DNA of 64,000 nt, from contig NW_021836294.1 of assembly GCF_006345805.1 (NCBI RefSeq), positions 11,208 through 75,207 on the forward strand, written 5' to 3'. Of this stretch, positions 15,420 through 55,530 are shown piece after piece (within the stretch, counting starts at the first letter, position 1; the number at the start of each line of letters is the position of its first letter). Position numbers and translations under genes: made by a program. This DNA is from Octopus sinensis (lineage: Eukaryota). The notes beneath the pieces were generated by a model. The model did not search any database. It worked only from the letters and a program-made list of their open reading frames with translations, and was not told where the DNA came from.

Positions 15420-16165
15420 ACGAATAGCCAACGAGAGAAAAGAAACTCTACTCCGCATGGAATTAGATGGTCGGTTCCAGCGTGAAACTAACAACTTAAA
15501 AGGCCAGGAAGCTTCATGGAGGCGGCACAGCAAGGGTAACCTAAAATGAAGACTGAAAGCTTAATCATCGCTGCCTAGGATCAGGCATTATTAACAAATC
15601 AGTGAAAAGAGATAGATATACCACACAAGTGCAACGAACCTCTGCAGAATGTATTGGAAGAGGGTCGAAAGCGTGACTCACATTGCCAGTGCTTGTGAAA
15701 GTCTTGTGCAATAAGAGTACACGTACAGACACAACAAGGTACCCCAAAACCTTCACTTGTAACGGGTGCATGGTACCAACATGCACCATAAAAGGTAATG
15801 GACGAAAAGAAGATGGCAAAATCCTTTGGAACTTTGACTTCGAGACAGACAAGGTGCTAGAACATCGAAGGCTGAGTATAGTAACCTTTAGGAGGGACAA
15901 ACAAGTGTACCTAATAATCGACATGGTTGTACCAGGAGATCAATGTATTATCATGAAAGAAAGAGAAAAGGTTGATATATATGGAGACCCGAGAAATGAG
16001 ATCGCTAAGATGTGGCAACTACGAGAGTAAAACTATGTTTGTCCCTATTGTCGTATAGTTCAATACCACCCAATTTGAGAAATATCTGAATACCTTAGAA
16101 ATACGCTACAATCTAGATTTATTGAAAAACTCGGCATTACTTGGAACTGCATTAGATGTCTTTTA
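15420..16165 (+). pseudogene. R4/Dong-like (RLE) non-LTR retrotransposon 3' fragment
   Basis: KILWNFDFETDKVLEHRRLSIV..LIIDMVVPGDQCIIMKEREKVDIYGDPRNEIAKMW resembles the PD-(D/E)xK restriction-like endonuclease (RPD..D..K..KY) region of R4-clade elements. Degenerate. Confidence 0.8.
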
Positions 16166-37483: not shown

Positions 37484-38282
37484 GGATCTTTTCCTTTTGA
37501 ACGGCACTTTGTAACACAATTTCTAGTTAACTAAACACTTTTAAACTTCGTATACTGGTAGAATGTGTTTATAAAACATCATTTTTTCTTGACTTTATTG
37601 AGAAAATTCTATAGTTTGTAAGATATTTCGTCTTTAATTTCGAGCATTTCGGCAATTTTAACCAATCGCTGACCTCCATTTAGGTAAACAACATTCCGTG
37701 CTGTCCCTCCTTTAAGAAACAGATTGGGTTTATTTACATTTGCGAAGAAAAAAGATACCCTAACCCTAACTCACCCTAACTCTAACCCTAAATCTAAAAT
37801 AGATTGAAATGCAATGGATCGATACTAGGGTTATAATTATGGGTGACAATTTCATACGACACCGCAACGGAAAATGGGATTTTTTTCTATTGGTGTCAAA
37901 TGAAAATGTCACCCATAATTATAACCCTAGTATCGATCTATTGCATTTCAATCTATTTTTAGATTTAGGGTTAGAGTTAGGGTGAGTTAGGGTTAGGGTA
38001 TCTTTTTTCTTCACAAATGTAAATAAACCCAATCTGTTTCTTAAAGGAGGGACATATTCATACAGCACGGAATGTTGTTTACCTAAATGGAGGTCAGCGA
38101 TTGGTTAAAATTGCCGAAATGCTCGAAATTAAAGATGAAATATCTTACAAACTATAGAATTTTCTCAATAAAGTCAAGAAAAAATGATGTTTTATAAACA
38201 CATTCTACCAGTATACGAAGTTTAAAAGTGTTTAGTTAACAAGAAATTGTGTTGAAAAGTGCCGTTCAAAAGGAAAAGATCC
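37484..38282. mobile_element. ~800-bp palindromic (foldback) MITE
   Basis: ~380-bp near-perfect inverted arms starting ggatcttttccttttgaacggc. TSD gaaataat at 37476-37483 and 38283-38290. Confidence 0.9.
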
Positions 38283-38750: not shown

Positions 38751-39447
38751 ATCAAACATTTGATCATATATAAATATGACCATGGTTCTTAAACATAAAA
38801 TATAATCATACAAAAACACAGAAGATAAAAAATATCCATGCGAATAAAATACAAATATATAGAACGGCCCATCAAAAATTTAATACAATCGACTAAAAAT
38901 TCTAAAGCGTATCATGCAACTAAAAATCTAAAAATAAAATAAAATATCAATCGACTAAAAAAAATTATTTCACACAAAAGAGAACGTTCAAAAAGTTCAA
39001 TTCATAAAACGATGGTTGGTTAGAGTCCAGGAGCAAAAAGAGTTCCACAAAATCAAATCAAACACACCTCTGGCCATTTCAGGAGTTCATTGACGCAGTT
39101 CGATCACAAAATGTATCTTGGCAATGACCCCTTCATTATGATGAACAGGAAACACACACAAAACAAAACCAAAAATGAGTTGTTTTTTTTTATTGCCCAC
39201 TAGGGGGCCAACATAGAGGGGACAACACAATCTGATTTTAGGGGTCAGATGAAGCATTATGACATAACATTGAAATGCAATTAAAAATTTAATACAAGAC
39301 ATATAAACGTATGATAAACGAAAGACAAAACGAATGGAGGGGTGAGGTGGGTTCAGCTCCGACCCCACGAGTCCCAATCCACCACTCATATCAGCAATGT
39401 ACTCCTGACATGTTCACATGGCTTACATCCACTCGCAACACTTGTGC

Positions 39448-39643
39448 GGTACTACAAGCGAACAGTGGTCCCGGTGCGCGCACTTGCGCGTCCTCGCTAG
39501 CTAGTTGTAAGTAGTCGATCCTACAATTTTTTTAACTAAGTAAATAAATTATTTTTATAAACAAACTAGGGTTAGGGTTAAAAAATTAGGGTTAGGTTTA
39601 GGGTTAAAAAGTCGTAGGATCGACTACTTACGATAGTAGTACC
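39448..39643. mobile_element. MITE with GGTAC termini and 9-bp TSD
   Basis: TSD cacttgtgc at 39439-39447 and 39644-39652. Internal IR gtaagtagtcgatcctac; ttaggg repeats. Confidence 0.85.
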
Positions 39644-39995
39644 CACTTGTGCCACGTACTTCCGGTACAAGCATCATAGACTGGACCCGGTTTGCGCACA
39701 CGCGCGTCCGTGCTAGCCAGACGTAGGCAGTCGATCCTACGAGCTGACTGGCGCATGCACGATATATACGATATATATACTTGTATCGATATATACGATA
39801 TATACTTGTATACGATATATACAATTCTGCAACAAAAATTGGATGGCGCTCACGACGGAAGATTAGCCCAAGCTATACGTGTTGTTATCTGTGATTAGAC
39901 GTTGAAATTTTGTTGTGTAAAGTGATTAATATCGCGCGAGGCGTTTGCCTCCACGTGTGGAAACCTTCCGAAGAAGGTGAATTGACCCTCTAGTC

Positions 39996-41098
39996 ATGGC
40001 GACTTACGCGGGGGTCACGGGAAAGAAAAATAATGATTCGTCGATAATCGTGAAGGATGTTTTCTTTGAGAAGAGTAAACTCAAAGAATATGAAAAACTA
40101 TTCAAAAGGGAGGGTGATAGCGTGAAGCTAATCCCCCCCCCCCCGCGAAAGCAAAAGAGGACAAAGAAAACAAGACTGTAACATATAGAACCCAAGACAA
40201 AAATACAAAGAAACTGGCAAGAGTGGAGATAGCAGAAATCGAAAAATGTCTGGGAGACATAATGGGGAAATCGACCTACGTGAGTAGAGGCAAGAAATTT
40301 GGTACGGTGGAGGTGAGATGTGCAACGGAAGAAATTGCAGCCTCACTGGCTACCACTGTACTAAGAGCGGAAACATTTATAATGTGGCCCTCATACAAGG
40401 GAAGAAGAGGGGTCCGGGTTAAAATCCCGAATATACCCCCAGAAGTGAAAACAGAATGGCTGGCAACAGCTATTCTAGGAGCAGCAGAAGAGGAAGTGGA
40501 GGTGGAATCCTTTAAGGAGTCCAACGCGATAAACTGGAGAGGATATGGGGTAGAACTGTGTTTGATGGCCACAAAAGAGGACATTGAAAGGTTCCCCTAC
40601 AGAATAGAAATTGAAGATGAGAAAACCCTCAGTGTAATTGTAGAGGGAAGAAAGCCAAACTGCTACTTGTGCGGGACAAGGGGGCACATTAAAAAAGAGT
40701 GCCCGTTATACGAATTCGTAGCGGAGTACGAGCAGGAACTTGAAGAAAAGAAGAATACTGTAAATGAAAAAGAAAACATAGAAAAGGAAACAAAACAACA
40801 AGAGAAAGGAAATAATAAGTCAATGAAGGAAAAAGAAATAAAAGAAAAGAAAGAAATAGAACCAAAACAGAGTCAGGAAAAAAAAAGGAAAAAGAAACAA
40901 CAGGAAAAAAACAAGAGAGAGATCAGAATCAAACGAAAAGAAAAGATGGCACACAAAAAGAAAAAGAAAAGGAACATAAAACACGAGAGAAAGAGAGAAC
41001 AGACAAAGAACCAAAAAGACAAGAGAAGGAAGAAGAAAGAAAAGAAGGCAAAAAGAGAGAAAGAGAGAAACAAAGAGAGGAGAACAAGGAAGAAATAA
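39996..41098 (+). CDS. LINE ORF1/gag-like nucleic-acid-binding protein with CCHC zinc knuckle and K/E/R-rich tail (frameshift in a C12 run)
   Basis: Start MATYAGVT; frames join across C12 at 40133-40144; RVKIPNIPPEV and V.VEGRKPNCYLCGTRGHIKKECP (Cx2Cx4Hx4C at 40661-40702) are typical of L1/Tx1-group ORF1. Confidence 0.75.
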
Positions 41099-41102
41099 GC
41101 CC

Positions 41103-41405
41103 GAAAAGAAAAACGAGGAAAACGTAGGACGGAAACAAGATTACCGCTTCTACAAGTTAGTAACCTTCCATTTCTGCCCTGAAATGAAAGAATTGACATG
41201 TAATACGGAGGGACATATATGGGTCAACAGGATGACCGATCAGTGGCAGGAGACTGCTCTAATCCCCGAAGAAAGAGTCGCTGAGTTCCTCAGAGCTGCC
41301 GGAGAGAGTGTAATATTTTACACGAGTGTTCGAGTGAGAGAGCGGCTGCCTGAGGGCTCAGTGATTGACTTTAGAGAATTGAAAGCTATTATGGAATACG
41401 TATAG
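41103..41405 (+). CDS. Open frame of ~100 codons, probably the frameshifted C-terminal domain of ORF1; function unknown
   Basis: Non-repetitive, globular-looking sequence YRFYKLVTFHFCPEMKELTCNTEGHIWVNRM...DFRELKAIMEYV inside the TSD-bounded element. Confidence 0.5.
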   Translation, partial: EKKNEENVGRKQDYRFYKLVTFHFCPEMKELTCNTEGHIWVNRMTDQWQETALIPEERVAEFLRAAGESVIFYTSVRVRERLPEGSVIDFRELKAIMEYV

Positions 41406-42087
41406 AAGTGTGAGAAGAGAGAGAAGAAAGAAGAAAAAGAAAAAGAAAATTTTGTGAAATATATGACGAAAATGTAACCTCTCGATTCCGGGGATCGAGT
41501 GGGCATTTACATCTCATTGTAAATATTCTTTCATATGTCATTTTTTACTTTTATTTTTTCCTTTTCTTGTCATTCGCTTTCTTATTTTAAGTTCCCCGAT
41601 TGTATTGTCCCCTCTATGTTCGCCCCTTGTGGGTAATAATAAAATCACGATATATACAAGTATATATCGTATATATCGTGCATGCGCCAGTCAGCTCGTA
41701 GGATCGACTGCCTACGTCTGGCTAGCACGGACGCGCGTCTGCGCGTGTGCACAAACCGGGTCCAGTCTACGATACTAGTACCCGTACTTCCATCTATCAT
41801 TGAGCATTTTCTCCGACAGGCACCTCCTCTCCAGCCACACGAAGTATCTCTGAAGACCGAGGCCAGAGACGAAGCTGCCTGTCGTTATTCCTTTCATTCT
41901 CATCTTTTATACAGTCTCTTTCGCGATTTCTACTACTATGAGAAAACAATTCTTACCTTCGTTCGACAGGAAACCAGGTGGGTCAATTTTTTTAATTGAT
42001 TCTGACGATAGCTGTACTCTTTCTGCACAAGACAACAGATGTTCCGCATAAGCCTCCGGCACCTCATAGCACTGAACGGTTTTGTTT

Positions 42088-43160
42088 CATTATTGCCCTT
42101 AAAGGCGCACAAAGAGGGGGACAACACAATATGAACGGGGTCATATACAATCGTATGGGTTTAAAAATTTATGACAAATGATTAACGAATGGAACGCAAA
42201 AAAAAAAAACATTTACATATACGAAAATAATACAATGAGGTATTAAAAACAGGTCAGCTTCGGCCCCACGAGCCCTGTCTTTAAAACCTATTTCTTTACT
42301 ACCCACAACGGGCTAAACACAGAGGGGACAAACAAGGACAGACATAGGTATTAAGTCGATTATATCGACTCCAGTGCGTAACTGGTACTTAATTTATCGA
42401 CCCTGAAAGGATGAAAGGCAAAGTCGACCTCGGCGGAATTTGAACTCAGAACGTAGCGGCAGACGAAATACCTATTTCTTTACTACACACAAGGGGCTAA
42501 ACACAGAGAGGACAAACAAGGACAGACAAACGGATTAAGTCGATTACATCGACCTCAGTGCGTAACTGGTACTTAATTTATCGACCCCGAAAGGATGAAA
42601 GGCAAAGTCGACCTCGGCGGAATTTGAACTCACAACGTAACGACAGACGAATTACGGCTACGCATTTCGCCCGGCGTGCTAACGTTTCTGCCAGCTTGCC
42701 CTGTCTTTAATACCGACACCTTGATAATCTTTCTGGCGTATTCACGCAGGGCCTTTCACTCTCAGCATACGTGCCACACGCGTCCATTTTTTTTTTAACG
42801 CACGCTTTGACAGGCACCTCCTTTCCAGACCCACCTTCATTTTAAGGTGAAAGGTAAAAACATTCACCAGGGCGAGGCCGGAGACGAAGCTGTCTGTCAC
42901 AATCCCTTTTATCCTTGACTTCCATATCACCTCTAACGCAATTGCTATTACTACGAGAAAACAATTCCTTACCTTCTTCCGTAAGGAAATCCGTCGGGTT
43001 AATGTTTAGAATTGACTCGGGCGATAGCTGTACTCTTCTTCCATCTGACAACAGGTGTTCTGCGTAAACCCACACTTCTGAAATTCCCGGACACTGAACA
43101 CTAGCGTGCGGGACGGTTTCCCTATCCCGTCCGCATCATAGACAGATAGGTGACACACTC
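42088..43160 (-). mobile_element. Second Tx1/L1-like LINE 3' fragment (ORF2 CCHC finger to tail)
   Basis: PICL*CGRDRETVPHASVQCPGISEVWVYAEHLL..IWKSRIKG..LERRCLS..KWTRVARMLRV; tail at 42088-42130. Confidence 0.8.
42285..42697 (-). mobile_element. SINE family B, head + 2 bodies, with TSD
   Basis: TSD gccctgtctttaa at 42272-42284 and 42698-42710. Confidence 0.92.
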
Positions 43161-44120: not shown

Positions 44121-44646
44121 CATATTTCGTTTTTGGATTTGGTTTGCAAGATTCTTTATATGAGTTCGTGTGTTGAAGCATATTCTGTTGTGTCTGGGGA
44201 GAGTCATTTTCTTTTTGTGCCTTATGATTTAACACACTCGCCGGTAAAATTTCCACTTATTTCTTATTTTTATTTTCCTAAAATTTTGGTTGCGTCTTGC
44301 AACCTTTTCAATAGTCTTGACTCTGTCCCTTATTTACACTGCGTTCCCTTTTGTTTGTTTGTGCGCATGTGTGTGGGTTAGTGTGTGTGTGTGCCTATGC
44401 ATGCATGCACGTACGTATGTATGTATGTGTTGATGTGTGTATTTATGTATCCATGTGTGTGTATGTATATATGTATGCATATGTATGTATGTATTCTGCA
44501 TATTCATGTTCTTGTATGTCCGTATTTGTGTATTTGTTATGTGTGGTGTGTGTGTTAGCGTGTGTTTGTATATATGTGCACCTCTGTCTCCTTGTGTGTG
44601 CATGTGTGTTGTGCAACTATTATTATTATTATTATTATTATTATTA

Positions 44647-46487
44647 CAAACAAGGACAGACAGACGGATCAAGTTGACTATATCGACCCGAGTGCGTAAC
44701 TGGTACTTTTTTAATCGACCCCGAAAGGATGATAGGCAAAGTCGACCTCGGCGGAATTTGAACTCAGAACGTAGCGGCAGACGAAATACCTATTTCTTTA
44801 CTACCCAGAAGGGGCTAAATATAGAGAGGACAGACAAGGACAGACAAAGGGATTAAGTCGATTATATCGACTCCAGTGCTAAACTGGTACTTTTTAAATC
44901 GACCCCGAAAGGATGATAGGCAAAGTCGACCTCGGCGGAATTTGAACTCAGAACGTAGCGGCAGACGAAATACCTATTTCTTTACTACCCAGAAGGGGCT
45001 AAATATAGAGAGGACAGACAAGGACAGACAAAGGGATTAAGTCGATTATATCGACTCCAGTGTGTAACTGGTACTTTTTAAATCGACCCCGAAGGGATAG
45101 GCAAAGTCGACCTCGGCGGAATTTGAACTCAGAACGTAGCGGCAGACGAAATACCTATTTCTTTACTACCCAGAAGGGGCTAAATATAGAGAGGACAGAC
45201 AGGACAGACAAAGGGTTAAGTCGATTATATCGACTCCAGTGTGTAACTGGTACTTTTTAAATCGACCCCGAAAGGATGATAGGCAAAGTCGACCTCGGCC
45301 GGAATTGAACTCAGAACGTAGCGGCAGACGAAATACCTATTTCTTTACTACCCAGAAGGGGCTAAATATAGAGAGGACAGACAAGGACAGACAAAGGGAT
45401 TAAGTCGATTATATCGACTCCAGTGCTAAACTGGTACTTTTTAAATCGACCCCGAAAGGATGATAGGCAAGTCGACCTCGGCGGAATTTGAACTCAGAAC
45501 GTAGCGGCAGACGAAATACCTATTTCTTTACTACCCAGAAGGGGCTAAATATAGAGAGGACAGACAAGGACAGACAAAGGGATTAAGTCGATTATATCGA
45601 CTCCAGTGCTAAACTGGTACTTTTTAATCGACCCCGAAAGGATGATAGGCAAAGTCGACCTCGGCGGAATTTGAACTCAGAACGTAGCGGCAGATGAAAT
45701 ACCTATTTCTTTACTACCCACAAGGGGCTAAATATAGAGAGGACAGACAAGGACAGACAAAGGGATTAAGTCGATTATATCGACTCCAGTGCTAAACTGG
45801 TACTTTTTAAATCGACCCCGAAAGGATGATAGGCAAAGTCGACCTCGGCGGAATTTGAACTCAGAACGTAGCGGCAGATGAAATACCTATTTCTTTACTA
45901 CCCACAAGGGGCTAAATATAGAGAGGACAGACAAGGACAGACAAAGGGATTAAGTCGATTATATCGACTCCAGTGCTAAACTGGTACTTTTTAAATCGAC
46001 CCCGAAAGGATGATAGGCAAAGTCGACCTCGGCGGAATTTGAACTCAGAACGTAGCGGCAGATGAAATACCTATTTCTTTACTACCCAGAAGGGGCTAAA
46101 TATAGAGAGGACAGACAAGGACAGACAAAGGGATTAAGTCGATTATATCGACTCCAGTGCTAAACTGGTACTTTTTAAATCGACCCCGAAAGGATGATAG
46201 GCAAAGTCGACCTCGGCGGAATTTGAACTCAGAACGTAGCGGCAGATGAAATACCTATTTCTTTACTACCCACAAGGGGCTAAATACAGAGAGGACAAAC
46301 AAGGACAGACAAAGGGATTAAGTCGATTATATCGACCTCAGTGCGTAACTGGTACTTTTTTAATCGACCCCGAAAGGATGAAAGGCAAAGTCGACCTCGG
46401 CGGAATTTGAACGCAGAACGTAACGGCAGACAAAATACTGCTAAGTATTTCGCCTGGCGTGCTAACGTTTCTGCCAGCTCGCCGCCT
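44647..46487 (-). repeat. SINE B-derived tandem array, head + ~10 units of ~184 bp
   Basis: Units share the variants gatgatagg and gactccagtg; single head at 46432-46487. Confidence 0.95.
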
Positions 46488-46686: not shown

Positions 46687-47101
46687 ACTACTACTACTAC
46701 TACTACTATGGCAATCCCTCAAGGTCGAGGATGATGGTCTTCGCGCAAATTCATTGGTGAGTCCGCAGGTGACTGATAAGACCAATTCTTGCTCGAAAAG
46801 ATCGGTCACAGTGCGGACATCTAGTGCCGAAAGGGAGAGTCGTACGTGGTGGTTGTTGGCGCTCCTTACGTCGTCGTCTTTTCTCCTCCAGCTCTGCAGA
46901 CCTTTTCGACTCGAAATTCGCCGTTCCCTCATGGATGGTGGTCTTCCAGAGTGGTCTGTGTTTTGCCGTTTCCTCCCAGTTAGTGAAATCGATGTCACAC
47001 TTTTTGAGGTTCGTTTTCAGGGAGTCCTTGTAGCGTTTCTTCTGGCCTCTTTTTGTACGCTCGCCGTCTTTGAGTTGGGAGTAGAAGATCTGTTTGGGAA
47101 C
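46687..47101 (-). mobile_element. RTE-clade (BovB-like) LINE, 5'-truncated, with TSD
   Basis: PKQIFYSQL..G.R..GQKKRYKDSLK..WEETA..R..W..C2H2 finger (CPHCDRSFRARIGLISHLRTH); (TAG)n tail; TSD taattttactact at 46674-46686 and 47102-47114. Confidence 0.92.
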
Positions 47102-47225
47102 TAATTTTACTACTCGCTTGTACACAACGTTATAATCATTTGGTATTTTTAAGTTATCAATTAGTGCGTTCTTGTCATTTATTGCCATGGAGACTGATAC
47201 CAATCTTACTAATTAGTACTTCGTG

Positions 47226-49485: not shown

Positions 49486-49862
49486 TTAAGCTATTTCGTG
49501 TCTTCTGTGAATTTTGTTTGGGGGTTTGTATCCAATATTTTGAACCAACTGATAACGATTGTTGCTCCCATTTCGAGGCCTAATTCCAGCTCTGATGTAA
49601 ACGTTGATATTTCGTAAGATATTGCTTATCAACCTCATTTCTATTTTCGCTGGGTTTATTAATCTACATTTAGGGTTAGTTGCGAAGTCTACCTTGTGAT
49701 CCTTTAAAGTGAGATAAGCCACATATTCAAACCTCTTATCTAAGTTAATCAACTCAGTTATGTGCTTGTCCTCCTCATAAGTTATTTCTGTGATTATTAG
49801 TTGTTTTCTGAAGAAGAAGTTGTTATGTTTATTCTCCTCTGTTTCATAGAGGTTATTGGTCT

Positions 49863-49870
<8 letters not shown>
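49486..49870 (-). pseudogene. Penelope-like element RT N-terminal fragment
   Basis: AYLTLKDHKVDFATNPKCRLINPAK matches the Penelope AF.TLKDHK.NF...P.CRLINPAK motif. Confidence 0.85.
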
Positions 49871-49901
<31 letters not shown>

Positions 49902-50045
49902 ACGCATTATTCGAAGACCTAAACTTCATTACATCAACGTTACACTTACGAAAGATAATGTTTACTGTTAAGTAGAAGAGAATGGCTTTGGAGACACGAG
50001 TTCCTATAATATTGTTCAGTGGCAAGGTATGGTTCTCGGTTTATA

Positions 50046-53000
50046 GGCGGCGAGCTGTCAGAGACGTTAGCACGCCGGGCGAAATGCTAAGCGGTATTTC
50101 GTCTGCCGTTACGTTCTGAGTTCAAATTCCGCCGAGGTCGACTTTGCCTTTCATCCTTTCGGGGTCGATAAACAAAGTACCAGTTACTAACTGGGGTCGA
50201 TGTAATCGACTTAATCCGTTTGTCTGTCCTTGTTTGTCCTCTCTGTATTTAACCCCTTCTGGGTAGTAAAGAAATAAGAAACGTTAGCACGCCGGGCGAA
50301 ATGCTTAGCGGTATTTCGTCTGCTGTTACGTTCTGAGTTCAAATTCCGCCGAGGTCGACTTTGCCTTTCATCCTTTCGGGGTCGATTAAATAAGTACCAG
50401 TTACGCACTGGGATCGATATAATCGATTTAATCCCTTTGTCTGTCCTTGTTTGTCTCCTCTATGTTTAGCCCCTTGTGGGTAGTAAAGAAATAAGTATTT
50501 CGTCTGCCGCTACGTTCTGAGTTCAAATTCCGCCGAGGTCGACTTTGCCTTTCATCCTTTTAGGGTCGATTAAATAAGTACCAGTTACTCACTGGGGTCG
50601 ATGTAATCGACTTAATCCATTTGTCTGTCCTTGATTGTCCCCTCTGTGTGTAGCCCCTTGTGGGTAGTAAAGAAATAGGTATTTCGTCTGCCGCTACGTT
50701 CTGAGTTCAAATTCCACTGAGGTCGACTTTGCCTTTCATCTTTTCAGGGTCGATTAAATAAGTACCAGTTACTCACTGGGGTCGATATAATCGACTCAAT
50801 CCGTTTGTCTGTCCTTGTTTGTCCTCTCTGTGTGTAGCCCCTTGTGGGTAGTAAAGAAATAGGTATTTCGTCTGCCGCTACGTTCTGAGTTCAAATTCCA
50901 CTGAGTTGACTTTGCCTTTCATCTTTTCAGGGTCGATTAAATAAGTACCAGTTACTCACTGGGGTCGATATAATCGACTCAATCCGTTTGTCTGTCCTTG
51001 TTTGTCCTCTCTGTGTGTAGCCCCTTGTGGTAGTAAAGAAATAGGTATTTCGTCTGCCGCTACGTTCTGAGTTCAAATTCCACTGAGGTTGACTTTGCCT
51101 TTCATCTTTTCAGGGTCGATTAAATAAGTACCAGTTACTCACTGGGGTCGATGTAATCGACTCAATCCGTTTGTCTGTCTTGTTTGTCCTCTCTGTGTGT
51201 AGCCCCTTGTGGTAGTAAAGAAATAGGTATTTCGTCTGCCGCTACGTTCTGAGTTCAAATTCCACTGAGGTTGACTTTGCCTTTCATCTTTTCAGGGTCG
51301 ATTAAATAAGTACCAGTACTAGTTACTCACTGGGGTCGATATAATCGACTCAATCCGTTTGTCTGTCCTTGTTTGTCCTCTCTGTGTGTAGCCCCTTGTG
51401 GGTAGTAAAGAAATAGGTATTTCGTCTGCCGCTACGTTCTGAGTTCAAATTCCACTGAGGTTGACTTTGCCTTTCATCTTTTCAGGTCGATTAAATAAGT
51501 ACCAGTTACTCACTGGGGTCGATATAATCGACTCAATCCGTTTGTCTGTCCTTGTTTGTCCTCCTGTGTGTACCCCTTGTGGGTAGTAAAGAAATAGGTA
51601 TTTCGTCTGCCGCTACGTTCTGAGTTCAAATTCCACTGAGGTTGACTTTGCCTTTCATCTTTTCAGGGTCGATTAAATAAGTACCAGTTACTCACTGGGG
51701 TCGATATAATCGACTCAATCCGTTTGTCTGTCCTTGTTTGTCCTCTCTGTGTGTAGCCCCTTGTGGGTAGTAAAGAAATAGGTATTTCGTCTGCCGCTAC
51801 GTTCTGAGTTCAAATTCCACTGAGGTTGACTTTGCCTTTCATCTTTTCAGGGTCGATTAAATAAGTACCAGTTACTCACTGGGGTCGATATAATCGACTC
51901 AATCCGTTTGTCTGTCCTTGTTTGTCCTCTCTGTGTGTAGCCCCTTGTGGGTAGTAAAGAAATAGGTATTTCGTCTGCCGCTACGTTCTGAGTTCAAATT
52001 CCACTGAGGTTGACTTTGCCTTTCATCTTTTCAGGGTCGATAAATAAGTACCAGTTACTCACTGGGGTCGATATAATCGACTCAATCCGTTTGTCTGTCC
52101 TTGTTTGTCCTCTCTGTGTGTAGCCCCTTGTGGGTAGTAAAGAAATAGGTATTTCGTCTGCCGCTACGTTCTGAGTTCAAATTCCACTGAGGTTGACTTT
52201 GCCTTTCATCTTTTCAGGTCGATTAAATAAGAGTTACCAGTTACTCACTGGGGTCGATATAATCGACTCAATCCGTTTGTCTGTCCTTGTTTGTCTCTCT
52301 GTGTGTAGCCCCTTGTGGGTAGTAAAGAAATAGGTATTTCGTCTGCCGCTACGTTCTGAGTTCAAATTCCACTGAGGTTGACTTTGCCTTTCATCTTTTC
52401 AGGGTCGATTAAATAAGTACCAGTTACTCACTGGGGTCGATATAATCGACTCAATCCGTTTGTCTGTCCTTGTTTGTCCTCTCTGTGTGTAGCCCCTTGT
52501 GGGTAGTAAAGAAATAGTATTTCGTCTGCCGCTACGTTCTGTGAGTTCAAATTCCCTGAGGTTGACTTTGCCTTTCATCTTTTCAGGGTCGATTAAATAA
52601 GTACCAGTTACTCACTGGGGTCGATGTAATCGACTCAATCCGTTTGTCTGTCCTTGTTTGTCCTCTCTGTGTGTAGCCCCTTGTGGGTAGTAAAGAAATA
52701 GGTATTTCGTCTGCCGCTACGTTCTGAGTTCAAATTCCACTGAGGTTGACTTTGCCTTTCATCTTTTCAGGGTCGATTAAATAAGTACCAGTTACTCACT
52801 GGGGTCGATATAATCGACTCAATCCGTTTGTCTGTCCTTGTTTGTCCTCTCTGTGTGTAGCCCCTTGTGGGTAGTAAAGAAATAGGTATTTCGTCTGCCG
52901 CTACGTTCTGAGTTCAAATTCCACTGAGGTTGACTTTGCCTTTCATCTTTTCAGGATCGATTAAATAAGTACCAGTTACTCACTGGGGTCGATATAATCG

Positions 53001-55275
53001 ACTCAATCCGTTTGTCTGTCCTTGTTTGTCCTCTCTGTGTGTAGCCCCTTGTGGGTAGTAAAGAAATAGGTATTTCGTCTGCCGCTACGTTCTGAGTTCA
53101 AATTCCACTGAGGTTGACTTTGCCTTTCATCTTTTCAGGGTCGATTAAATAAGTACCAGTTACTCACTGGGGTCGATATAATCGACTCAATCCGTTTGTC
53201 TGTCCTTGTTTGTCCTCTCTGTGTGTAGCCCCTTGTGGGTAGTAAGAAATAGGTATTTCGTCTGCCGCTACGTTCTGAGTTCAAATTCCACTGAGGTTGA
53301 CTTTGCCTTTCATCTTTTCAGGGTCGATTAAATAAGTACCAGTTACTCACTGGGGTCGATATAATCGACTCAATCCGTTTGTCTGTCCTTGTTTGTCCTC
53401 TCTGTGTGTAGCCCCTTGTGGGTAGTAAAGAAATAGGTATTTCGTCTGCCGCTACGTTCTGAGTTCAAATTCCACTGAGGTTGACTTTGCCTTTCATCTT
53501 TTCAGGGTCGATTAAATAAGTACCAGTTACTCACTGGGGTCGATATAATCGACTCAATCCGTTTGTCTGTCCTTGTTTGTCCTCTCTGTGTGTAGCCCCT
53601 TGTGGGTAGTAAAGAAATAGGTATTTCGTCTGCCGCTACGTTCTGAGTTCAAATTCCACTGAGGTTGACTTTGCCTTTCATCTTTTCAGGGTCGATTAAA
53701 TAAGTACCAGTTACTCACTGGGGTCGATGTAATCGACTCAATCCGTTTGTCTGTCCTTGTTTGTCCTCTCTGTGTGTAGCCCCTTGTGGGTAGTAAAGAA
53801 ATAGGTATTTCGTCTGCCGCTACGTTCTGAGTTCAAATTCCACTGAGGTTGACTTTGCCTTTCATCTTTTCAGGGTCGATTAAATAAGTACCAGTTACTC
53901 ACTGGGGTCGATATAATCGACTCAATCCGTTTGTCTGTCCTTGTTTGTCCTCTCTGTGTGTAGCCCCTTGTGGTAGTAAAGAAATAGGTATTTCGTCTGC
54001 CGCTACGTTCTGAGTTCAAATTCCACTGAGGTTGACTTTGCCTTTCATCTTTTCAGGGTCGATTAAATAAGTACCAGTTACTCACTGGGGTCGATATAAT
54101 CGACTCAATCCGTTTGTCTGTCCTTGTTTGTCCTCTCTGTGTGTAGCCCCTTGTGGGTAGTAAAGAAATAGGTATTTCGTCTGCCGCTACGTTCTGAGTT
54201 CAAATTCCACTGAGGTTGACTTTGCCTTTCATCTTTCAGGGTCGATTAAATAAGTACCAGTTACTCACTGGGGTCGATATAATCGACTCAATCCGTTTGT
54301 CTGTCCTTGTTTGTCCTCTCTGTGTGTAGCCCCTTGTGGTAGTAAAGAAATAGTATTTCGTCTGCCGCTACGTTCTGAGTTCAAATTCCACTGAGGTTGA
54401 CTTTGCCTTTCATCTTTTCAGGGTCGATTAAATAAGTACCAGTTACTCACTGGGGTCGATATAATCGACTCAATCCGTTTGTCTGTCCTTGTTTGTCCTC
54501 TCTGTGTGTAGCCCCTTGTGGGTAGTAAAGAAATAGGTATTTCGTAAGCCGCTACGTTCTGAGTTCAAATTCCACTGAGGTCGACTTTGCCTTTCATCTT
54601 TTCAGGGTCGATTAAATAAGTACCAGTTACTCACTGGGGTCGATGTAATCGACTTAATCCGTTTGTCTGTCCTTGTTTGTCCTCTCTGTGTGTAGCCCCT
54701 TGTGGGTAGTAAAGAAATAGGTATTTCGTCTGCCGCTACGTTCTGAGTTCAAATTCCACTGAGGTCGACTTTGCCTTTCATCTTTTCAGGGTCGATTAAA
54801 TAAGTACCAGTTACTCACTGGGGTCGATATAATCGACTCAATCCGTTTTGTCTGTCCTTGTTTGTCCTCTCTGTGTGTAGCCCCTGTGGTAGTAAAGAAA
54901 TAGGTATTTCGTCTGCCGCTACGTTCTGAGTTCAAATTCCACTGAGGTTGACTTTGCCTTTCATCTTTTCAGGGTCGATTAAATAAGTACCAGTTACTCA
55001 CTGGGGTCGATATAATCGACTCAATCCGTTTGTCTGTCCTTGTTTGTCCTCTTCTGTGTGTAGCCCCTTGTGGGTAGTAAAGAAATAGGTATTTCGTCTG
55101 CCGCTACGTTTCTGAGTTCAAATTCCACTGAGGTTGACTTTGCCTTTCATCTTTTCAGGGTCGATTAAATAAGTACCAGTTACTCACTGGGGTCGATATA
55201 ATCGACTCAATCCGTTTGTCTGTCCTTGTTTGTCCTCTCTGTGTGTACCCCCTTGTGGGTAGTAAAGAAATAGGT
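50046..55275 (+). repeat. SINE B-derived satellite: one full head followed by about 28 units of ~183 bp
   Basis: Homogeneous units with diagnostic ccactgaggttgac, catcttttcagg, gactcaatcc. Confidence 0.97.
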
Positions 55276-55530
55276 ATTCACGTGGCTAACATGAACCTTA
55301 TGCTAAATATCTGTATTTCACAAGAACAGCGTAGAGATATATTTAACGCTGTGTTTCAATCACAATATATGTGTGTGTGTGTGTAATAATCTTTTATATG
55401 TTTCATAAGGTGTGACTATATATGGTATATATGTGTATGAGTGCTTTGTATGGATGTATATGTTTGAGCGCGTGTGCTTTTGTGTGTATGGCATGTGCAT
55501 ACGTCGCTCAAAAGCCCAAATGCGAGCAAG

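Follow-up and report, generated by a model that had tools for sequence, protein, structure and literature searches.

Structure of the locus

Positions 39825-41646 of the window (the whole 64-kb stretch of octopus DNA analysed in this study) hold a complete retroposon copy that is flanked by a target-site duplication (TSD) and codes only for the ORF1 protein of a LINE. It is the innermost part of a nested stack of about 4 kb (window 39185-43144), which comprises a split LINE, two MITE-like elements, the ORF1-only unit, a second LINE and a SINE dimer:

39185..39447, minus strand: 3' end of an L1/Tx1-like LINE (end of ORF2, 3' UTR and tail), whose upstream part lies at 41792-42075
39448..39643, no strand: inverted-repeat element related to the next one, with a 9-bp TSD (39439-39447 / 39644-39652)
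39664..41782, no strand: host inverted-repeat element, MITE-like, 284 bp when empty, with a 9-bp TSD (39655-39663 / 41783-41791) and the unit at its hairpin tip
39812..39824, plus strand: left 13-bp TSD of the unit (exact repeat, chance control)
41647..41659, plus strand: right 13-bp TSD of the unit (exact repeat)
41792..42075, minus strand: upstream ORF2 C-terminal piece of the split LINE (tblastn with P0184, E=4e-14)
42076..43144, minus strand: second L1/Tx1-like LINE 3' fragment (tblastn with P0184, E=1e-14)
42285-42697: SINE dimer in the 3' UTR of the second LINE fragment, with a 13-bp TSD

The original prediction had described a 1.82-kb unit with a perfect 13-bp TSD. The unit measures 1,822 bp, and both copies of the TSD, ACGATATATACAA, were found at 39812-39824 and 41647-41659, with no third occurrence on either strand of the 64-kb window. 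As a chance control, a 13-mer repeat 1.2-2.5 kb upstream was seen at 38 of 13,765 random low-copy positions; when repeats were kept in, 439 of 5,000 positions showed a comparable 13-mer repeat. The flanks of the unit are two inverted-repeat arms of 84 nt that are 99% complementary, and excision of the unit with one TSD restored a single long DNA hairpin of 284 bp with the 13-mer at its tip. Because such a TSD is rare by chance and the empty hairpin is restored, the insertion and the ends of the unit are secure, and retrotransposition of the unit as a whole without ORF2 is supported.

The LINE came first, the two MITE-like elements next and the ORF1-only unit last, and the ORF2 end of the split LINE reads in frame once both inverted-repeat elements are removed. 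The second LINE copy sits in or beside the first, and the SINE dimer lies within the second. The two related MITE-like elements, which we take to be Mutator-like, were inserted 11 bp apart, each with a TSD of 9 bp, and split one LINE between them. A telomeric, HeT-A-like role for the ORF1-only copy was also considered and was rejected, because a MITE-like element accounts for the TTAGGG repeats near 39570-39606. TTAGGG repeats also occur in a near-perfect foldback of about 800 bp at 37484-38282 (arms 94-99% complementary). Elsewhere in the window, 46751-47212 (minus strand), 15677-16030 (plus strand) and 49486-50040 (minus strand) are fragments that resemble RTE-, R4/NeSL- and Penelope-type retroelement proteins.

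Anatomy of the ORF1-only unit

The unit itself contains the following parts, all on the plus strand:

39825..39995: 5' UTR, 171 nt, 11 CpG; the ORF1 ATG is at 39996
39996..40144: ORF1 N-terminal segment, ending in a C12 run where the frame changes (N-terminal homology to relatives)
40145..40654: ORF1 core, two predicted RRM-fold domains (AF2, Foldseek, VIA-align, Atlas)
40658..40705: CCHC zinc knuckle (Pfam PF00098, E=4e-5 to 7e-5, above the Pfam cut-off)
40721..41129: ORF1 linker, A-rich (62% A), rich in K, E and R, with two one-base frame breaks
41130..41405: ORF1 C-terminal domain of about 90 aa and stop codon (41403-41405); C-terminus common to 18 proteins labelled O. vulgaris
41406..41646: 3' UTR, 241 nt, colinear over its final ~165 nt with the 3' UTRs of the LINEs
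41600..41646: conserved tail common to the LINE remnants and a SINE (46-nt alignments)

The lengths of about 170 nt for the 5' UTR and about 240 nt for the 3' UTR that had been proposed earlier agreed with these measurements. An ATGGCG motif at +19 of the 5' UTR resembles, in our opinion, the YY1 core of L1 internal promoters. The absence of endonuclease (EN) and reverse transcriptase (RT) was borne out as well: no Pfam EN or RT family was present in the five frame pieces of the unit, where the zinc knuckle was the sole Pfam family above cut-off, and tblastx of the unit against the neighbouring ORF2 pieces gave no match at E<=0.1. The longest minus-strand frame of the unit has 116 aa, and Rfam reported nothing in 39400-41400. 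As for the A-rich tail that had been claimed, the unit does finish in a short A-rich stretch, as do the local LINEs and SINEs; it has no poly(A). In a sequencing-run index, 20 of the 24 listed rows, from 10 studies and with three organism codes, contained at least half of the sampled words of the unit; there was no RNA run among these listed holders, which says nothing on expression.

The ORF1 protein and its frame breaks

ORF1 is one gene of about 470 codons that is broken three times in the window copy, each time by one base at a base run. The first frameshift had been placed in a C12 homopolymer, and the run at 40133-40144 indeed separates the first two frames; the two further one-base breaks lie in an A9 run (40878-40886) and near 41116-41122. 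The N-terminal segment (39996-40144) is homologous to the N-termini of P0090 (E=6e-8), P0051, P0050, P0055 and P0003. The first four read through the C-run point, as do the O. bimaculoides protein P0003 and more distant relatives. The second and third breaks are read through by 14 copies labelled O. vulgaris, the middle piece being identical at 71-73 of 73 residues. Since relatives read through the break points, the ORF1 pieces belong to one gene. The upstream ATG is used by none of the 14 near-identical copies, three of which begin with the first Met downstream of the C run. The C-run break may reflect an assembly error, slippage or a feature that is fixed in the copies. With three breaks in the window copy and no start at the upstream ATG among the 14, an intact full-length ORF1 of this subfamily is not on record.

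The AF2 model of the 192-residue core had a pLDDT of 92.6. With this model, Foldseek gave 38 matches at E<=0.001, among them RRM12 of IMP3 (E=3e-6) and HuD, and the VIA-align matches were mostly RRMs (best Z 9.5). The Atlas neighbours of P0003 were RNA-binding domains of ZCCHC3 and RRM/CCHC clusters (0.90-0.92). The predicted fold of the core is a pair of RRMs, with the CCHC knuckle after it, as in a type I LINE ORF1. The gag-like ORF1 with a CCHC knuckle of the original prediction can accordingly be recognised, by its Pfam zf-CCHC match and its predicted tandem RRM fold, as a real LINE ORF1. Type I architecture has been linked to L1/Tx1 elements and is also found in other LINE clades (PMC5203782). 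No match of ORF1 to Transposase_22 was obtained in Pfam at E<=5.

The C-terminal domain of about 90 aa had no significant Pfam, PDB-sequence or Atlas match. It is related to P0012 (z=7.2). Homology to the C-termini of distant relatives or to P0024 was tried and was not significant (z<=2.3), and a profile of other C-terminal domains ranked the window domain no higher than shuffles. Among the copies, this domain (41130-41402) is more variable than the ORF1 core and linker: it agrees with the window at 83-92 of 93-96 residues.

Copies and relatives of ORF1

The ORF1 copies elsewhere are known from their proteins alone. Eighteen distinct proteins labelled O. vulgaris, corresponding to 22 accessions on at least seven contigs (1.3-226 Mb), stop at exactly the residue where the window ORF1 stops. 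Fourteen of them share 91.7-100% pairwise identity over about 280 aa (91 pairs, median 94.9). The suggestion that the copy may be young gained ground, and its ORF1 is not single-copy. At the protein level, the variants among the 14 copies were 35 shared and 6 private, with mostly conservative changes; this ratio points to several source elements. Judged by its proteins, the ORF1 repeat is multi-copy and young, with subfamilies, and not a single gene.

The nearest O. bimaculoides protein (P0003) has 53% identity in the core. The wider ORF1 family has 464 representatives at E<=0.001; among ten relatives looked up, the named members came from Octopus and Argonauta. No EN or RT domain was present in 24 selected ORF1 relatives, mostly the longest ones, and no ORF1-ORF2 fusion was seen among four matches of 337-2000 aa, which is weak evidence. 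Scans of metagenome contigs with P0001 and with a distant ORF1 subgroup yielded no relatives among 594 and 135 pattern matches, respectively, and a scan of viral contigs yielded none among 28. The ORF1 tree covers 53 of the 171 matching proteins; it assigns no clade, because it is a quick, midpoint-rooted tree built without Repbase reference ORF1s.

Some accessions are consecutive. CAI9715245-49 and CAI9715251 comprise five distinct ORF1 sequences on one contig of 225.7 Mb, and CAI9739099-101 are three identical ORF1 sequences on another contig; local clusters or tandem arrays are a possible explanation of such runs. A second repeat, an 89-aa ORF (P0024-P0034, P0004), is identical on nine contigs. 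Gene models join it, seemingly through a predicted splice, to the 3' half of a window-type ORF1 (three loci) or to a related ORF1 (a fourth locus), and it seems to lie repeatedly upstream of ORF1 copies. The 89-aa ORF was absent from the 64-kb window, and homology between it and ORF1 was not demonstrable.

The 3' end shared with neighbouring LINEs and a SINE

The tail of the unit had been described as common to the neighbouring Tx1-like LINEs, and this held: its last 46 nt matched the two adjoining LINE remnants at 40/46 and 36/46 positions. The same 46 nt matched the abundant 184-bp SINE of the window at 42/46 positions in two copies. The accompanying claim that the rest of the 3' UTR is unrelated did not hold, as the unit and the LINE UTRs are colinear over about 165 nt (a G-rich motif, a T-rich tract and the tail) and weakly similar over about 140 nt. 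With the tail removed, the 3' UTR aligned with LINE copy B at a score of 49 (reached by 2 of 500 shuffles) and with LINE copy A at 33 (18 of 500), and the tail-less UTRs of copies A and B aligned with each other at 51 (0 of 500). The tail-less similarity to the LINE UTRs is, in these alignments, borderline to significant. An unrelated UTR had been put forward as an argument against a simple deletion, and this argument is weakened by the colinearity. A hairpin in the tail was no better than in shuffles for five tails (z -1.5 to +0.2).

The sole database relative of the LINE remnants is a fragment of 173 aa that matches zf-RVT weakly, and for this reason the cautious name 'L1/Tx1-like' is used for these neighbours. 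The ORF2 ends are short and decayed, and zf-RVT in them or in their relative stayed below cut-off (E=0.002-0.13). No full octopus ORF2 was retrieved, and there was one partial match among 242 candidates. Thirteen recently active L1-Tx1 families, with 421 insertions, 2.29 Mb and about 5.4 kb each, have been reported (PMC13282606); therefore, working ORF2 donors are probably present in octopus.

In the 64-kb window, the 184-bp SINE has 23 matching loci that cover 12.4 kb. Many copies are head-to-tail arrays of its 3' 184 bp, with up to 27 units (for example, 44646-46479 and 50053-55278). Rfam found nothing in one SINE pair and ARAGORN found no tRNA. The TSDs of three SINE loci (13, 16 and 17 bp) are AT-rich and mutually unlike, as is that of the unit, a pattern that fits one shared endonuclease of low specificity. 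When elements have a 3' end in common, this usually indicates stringent tail recognition by an ORF2 protein (PMC4176376, PMC3747384).

Origin and mobilisation of the unit

By its sequence the unit looks bipartite, with the 5' end and ORF1 of a LINE followed by a LINE 3' UTR and with ORF2 cleanly gone. Given the colinear UTRs, the unit probably goes back to a related LINE that underwent an internal deletion, which is the route proposed for HAL1-type families. The young L1-Tx1 families of 5.4 kb are further candidates for the parent. We believe that the unit is probably a protein-coding non-autonomous LINE of the HAL1/HeT-A/Ag-Sponge kind, which spreads as a family and is mobilised in trans by a tail-recognising ORF2 of L1/Tx1 type. 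A family is favoured because all of ORF2 is cleanly lost and because of the number of ORF1 gene models. The family would have arisen when a relative of the neighbouring LINEs cleanly lost ORF2 from its interior, and the other ORF1 copies would be ORF1-only too. The unit would be transcribed from an internal promoter in its own 5' UTR, and the ORF1 protein would coat its own RNA in cis. The ORF2 protein of a full LINE would then bind the tail, nick AT-rich DNA and carry out target-primed reverse transcription, leaving the 13-bp TSD.

The multi-copy ORF1s could instead belong to full LINEs, because the other copies are known from proteins only. The window copy would then be a one-off, in which a young autonomous L1/Tx1 LINE lost its ORF2 in a single insertion, through a template jump in reverse transcription, splicing of the LINE RNA or a later deletion. 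The colinear 3' UTR agrees with such an event, and young L1-Tx1 insertions of about 5.4 kb have been reported (PMC13282606). Because full-size young LINEs exist, a single loss has to be taken seriously. We nevertheless consider it unlikely, as both breakpoints must fall between the ORF1 stop and the UTR start with no ORF2 remnant left, and we infer that such remnant-free removal is rare for random deletion. The consecutive accessions, which are distinct ORF1 copies with mostly no other gene model between them, speak weakly against it as well. RT gene models are often filtered from annotations, which weakens this last argument.

A family that is ORF1-only and non-coding in practice was also weighed. 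Its masters would carry the C-run break, and it would spread like a long SINE by means of its promoter and tail while ORF1 decays. None of the 14 near-identical proteins has the N-terminal segment, the window copy has its three breaks, and other frame breaks occur in P0002, P0008 and P0016. On the other hand, frames of 278-380 codons are open in the 14 copies and their shared changes are mostly conservative, and all breaks of the window copy lie in base runs. Base-run errors are plausible, because the O. vulgaris assembly behind the 2026 annotation was built from Nanopore and 10x reads. We hold a non-coding family to be very improbable. A processed retrocopy of a domesticated host gene (ZCCHC3- or L1TD1-like) would explain the Atlas similarity to ZCCHC3 RNA-binding domains and the annotation of ORF1 copies as genes. 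It is scarcely credible for a sequence with a LINE/SINE-type tail and no poly(A), with many dispersed near-identical copies and 464 relatives at E<=0.001, hundreds of them divergent, and with a nearest O. bimaculoides protein that is merely 53% identical.

The tail allows a further speculation. The LINE, the ORF1-only element and the most abundant SINE of the genome might form a three-part system on one tail, in which a stringent LINE of L1/Tx1 type gives ORF2 protein, the ORF1-only element amplifies independently and gives ORF1 protein, in trans as well, and the SINE uses both. Given the sister ORF1 in O. bimaculoides, the ORF1-only form might then go back a long way in octopods. We regard this scheme as improbable.

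Novelty and comparison with known systems

The concept of an ORF1-only non-autonomous LINE is already known. No description of an ORF1-only element from a mollusc or cephalopod was found in the literature, and a search by terms found no cephalopod one in the supplement of PMC13282606 or in PMC9115989, PMC8967140, PMC11203168 and PMC4758252. The Repbase and Dfam libraries, like the Zenodo library of PMC13282606, may hold the unit as an 'L1-Tx1' or 'unknown' consensus. If the family is true, it represents an independent origin of an ORF1-only LINE in a new phylum, on the L1/Tx1-like side. Because the family seems recent and has several subfamilies, it would allow a direct test of why a LINE parasite retains ORF1 when a SINE that carries the same tail needs none. 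In addition, no fewer than 22 protein accessions of O. vulgaris stand for copies of this mobile ORF1 and not for host genes. The more unusual aspect is the SINE tail that is shared with an L1-clade LINE and with an ORF1-only unit; in the L1 clade, few SINEs are known to share a tail with a LINE (PMC3747384).

Non-autonomous LINEs that code for ORF1 include HeT-A (Jockey), HAL1 (L1) and Ag-Sponge (CR1) (PMC5786205). A LINE ORF1-type protein, the lack of ORF2 and a TSD with a LINE-type 3' end, which mark this kind, were all found in the window copy. Regarding Tx1 itself, a clade that is defined by RT phylogeny, the ORF1 type fits and the zf-RVT of the putative partner is below cut-off. Many Tx1 members have a sequence-specific target, and for the unit there is one insertion site only. 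HAL1 of mammals, where it arose several times (PMC5753468), is similar in being non-autonomous, ORF1-only, of L1-clade origin and moved in trans (PMC5753468, PMC13756887, PMC5786205). In contrast to HAL1, whose ORF1 is of the Transposase_22 type, the octopus unit has a type I ORF1 by prediction (two RRMs and CCHC), and in place of poly(A) it has the conserved 46-nt tail common to LINE and SINE and then a short A-rich end; its host is an octopus, and its family appears very young. HAL1 in the strict sense was ruled out by the lack of a Transposase_22 match and of poly(A).

Similarly, Ag-Sponge of Anopheles gambiae is an ORF1-coding internal-deletion derivative of a LINE (PMC5786205, PMC3414825). 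It belongs to the CR1 clade, whereas the octopus unit stands on the L1/Tx1-like side. HeT-A of Drosophila, a telomere-specific member of the Jockey clade, forms head-to-tail arrays at telomeres, and its ORF1 carries zinc knuckles. It has a gag-like ORF1 only and depends on the RT of a partner (PMC5786205). In contrast, the octopus copy is dispersed, single and TSD-flanked, and it lies inside a MITE-like element.

Studies have shown experimentally that TRE5-A.2 of Dictyostelium, which has no ORF2, is mobilised in trans by the ORF2 protein of TRE5-A.1 (PMC5633606). The octopus unit resembles it in lacking ORF2 and in its presumed mobilisation in trans. TRE5-A.2 has tRNA genes as its target and a partner almost identical to itself (PMC5633606), and no such partner or target was identified for the octopus unit. 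Stringent pairs of an L1-clade LINE and SINEs have been described in maize (ZmSINE2/3 with LINE1-1_ZM) and Chlamydomonas (SINEX-3_CR with L1-1_CR), and the available text of these sources counts three SINEs with L1-clade tails, no animal one among them (PMC3747384, PMC3472496). As in these pairs, about 45 nt of the 3' end are kept between an L1-clade LINE and its dependants. In octopus, unlike in these pairs, one tail is common to a LINE, a SINE and an ORF1-only unit.
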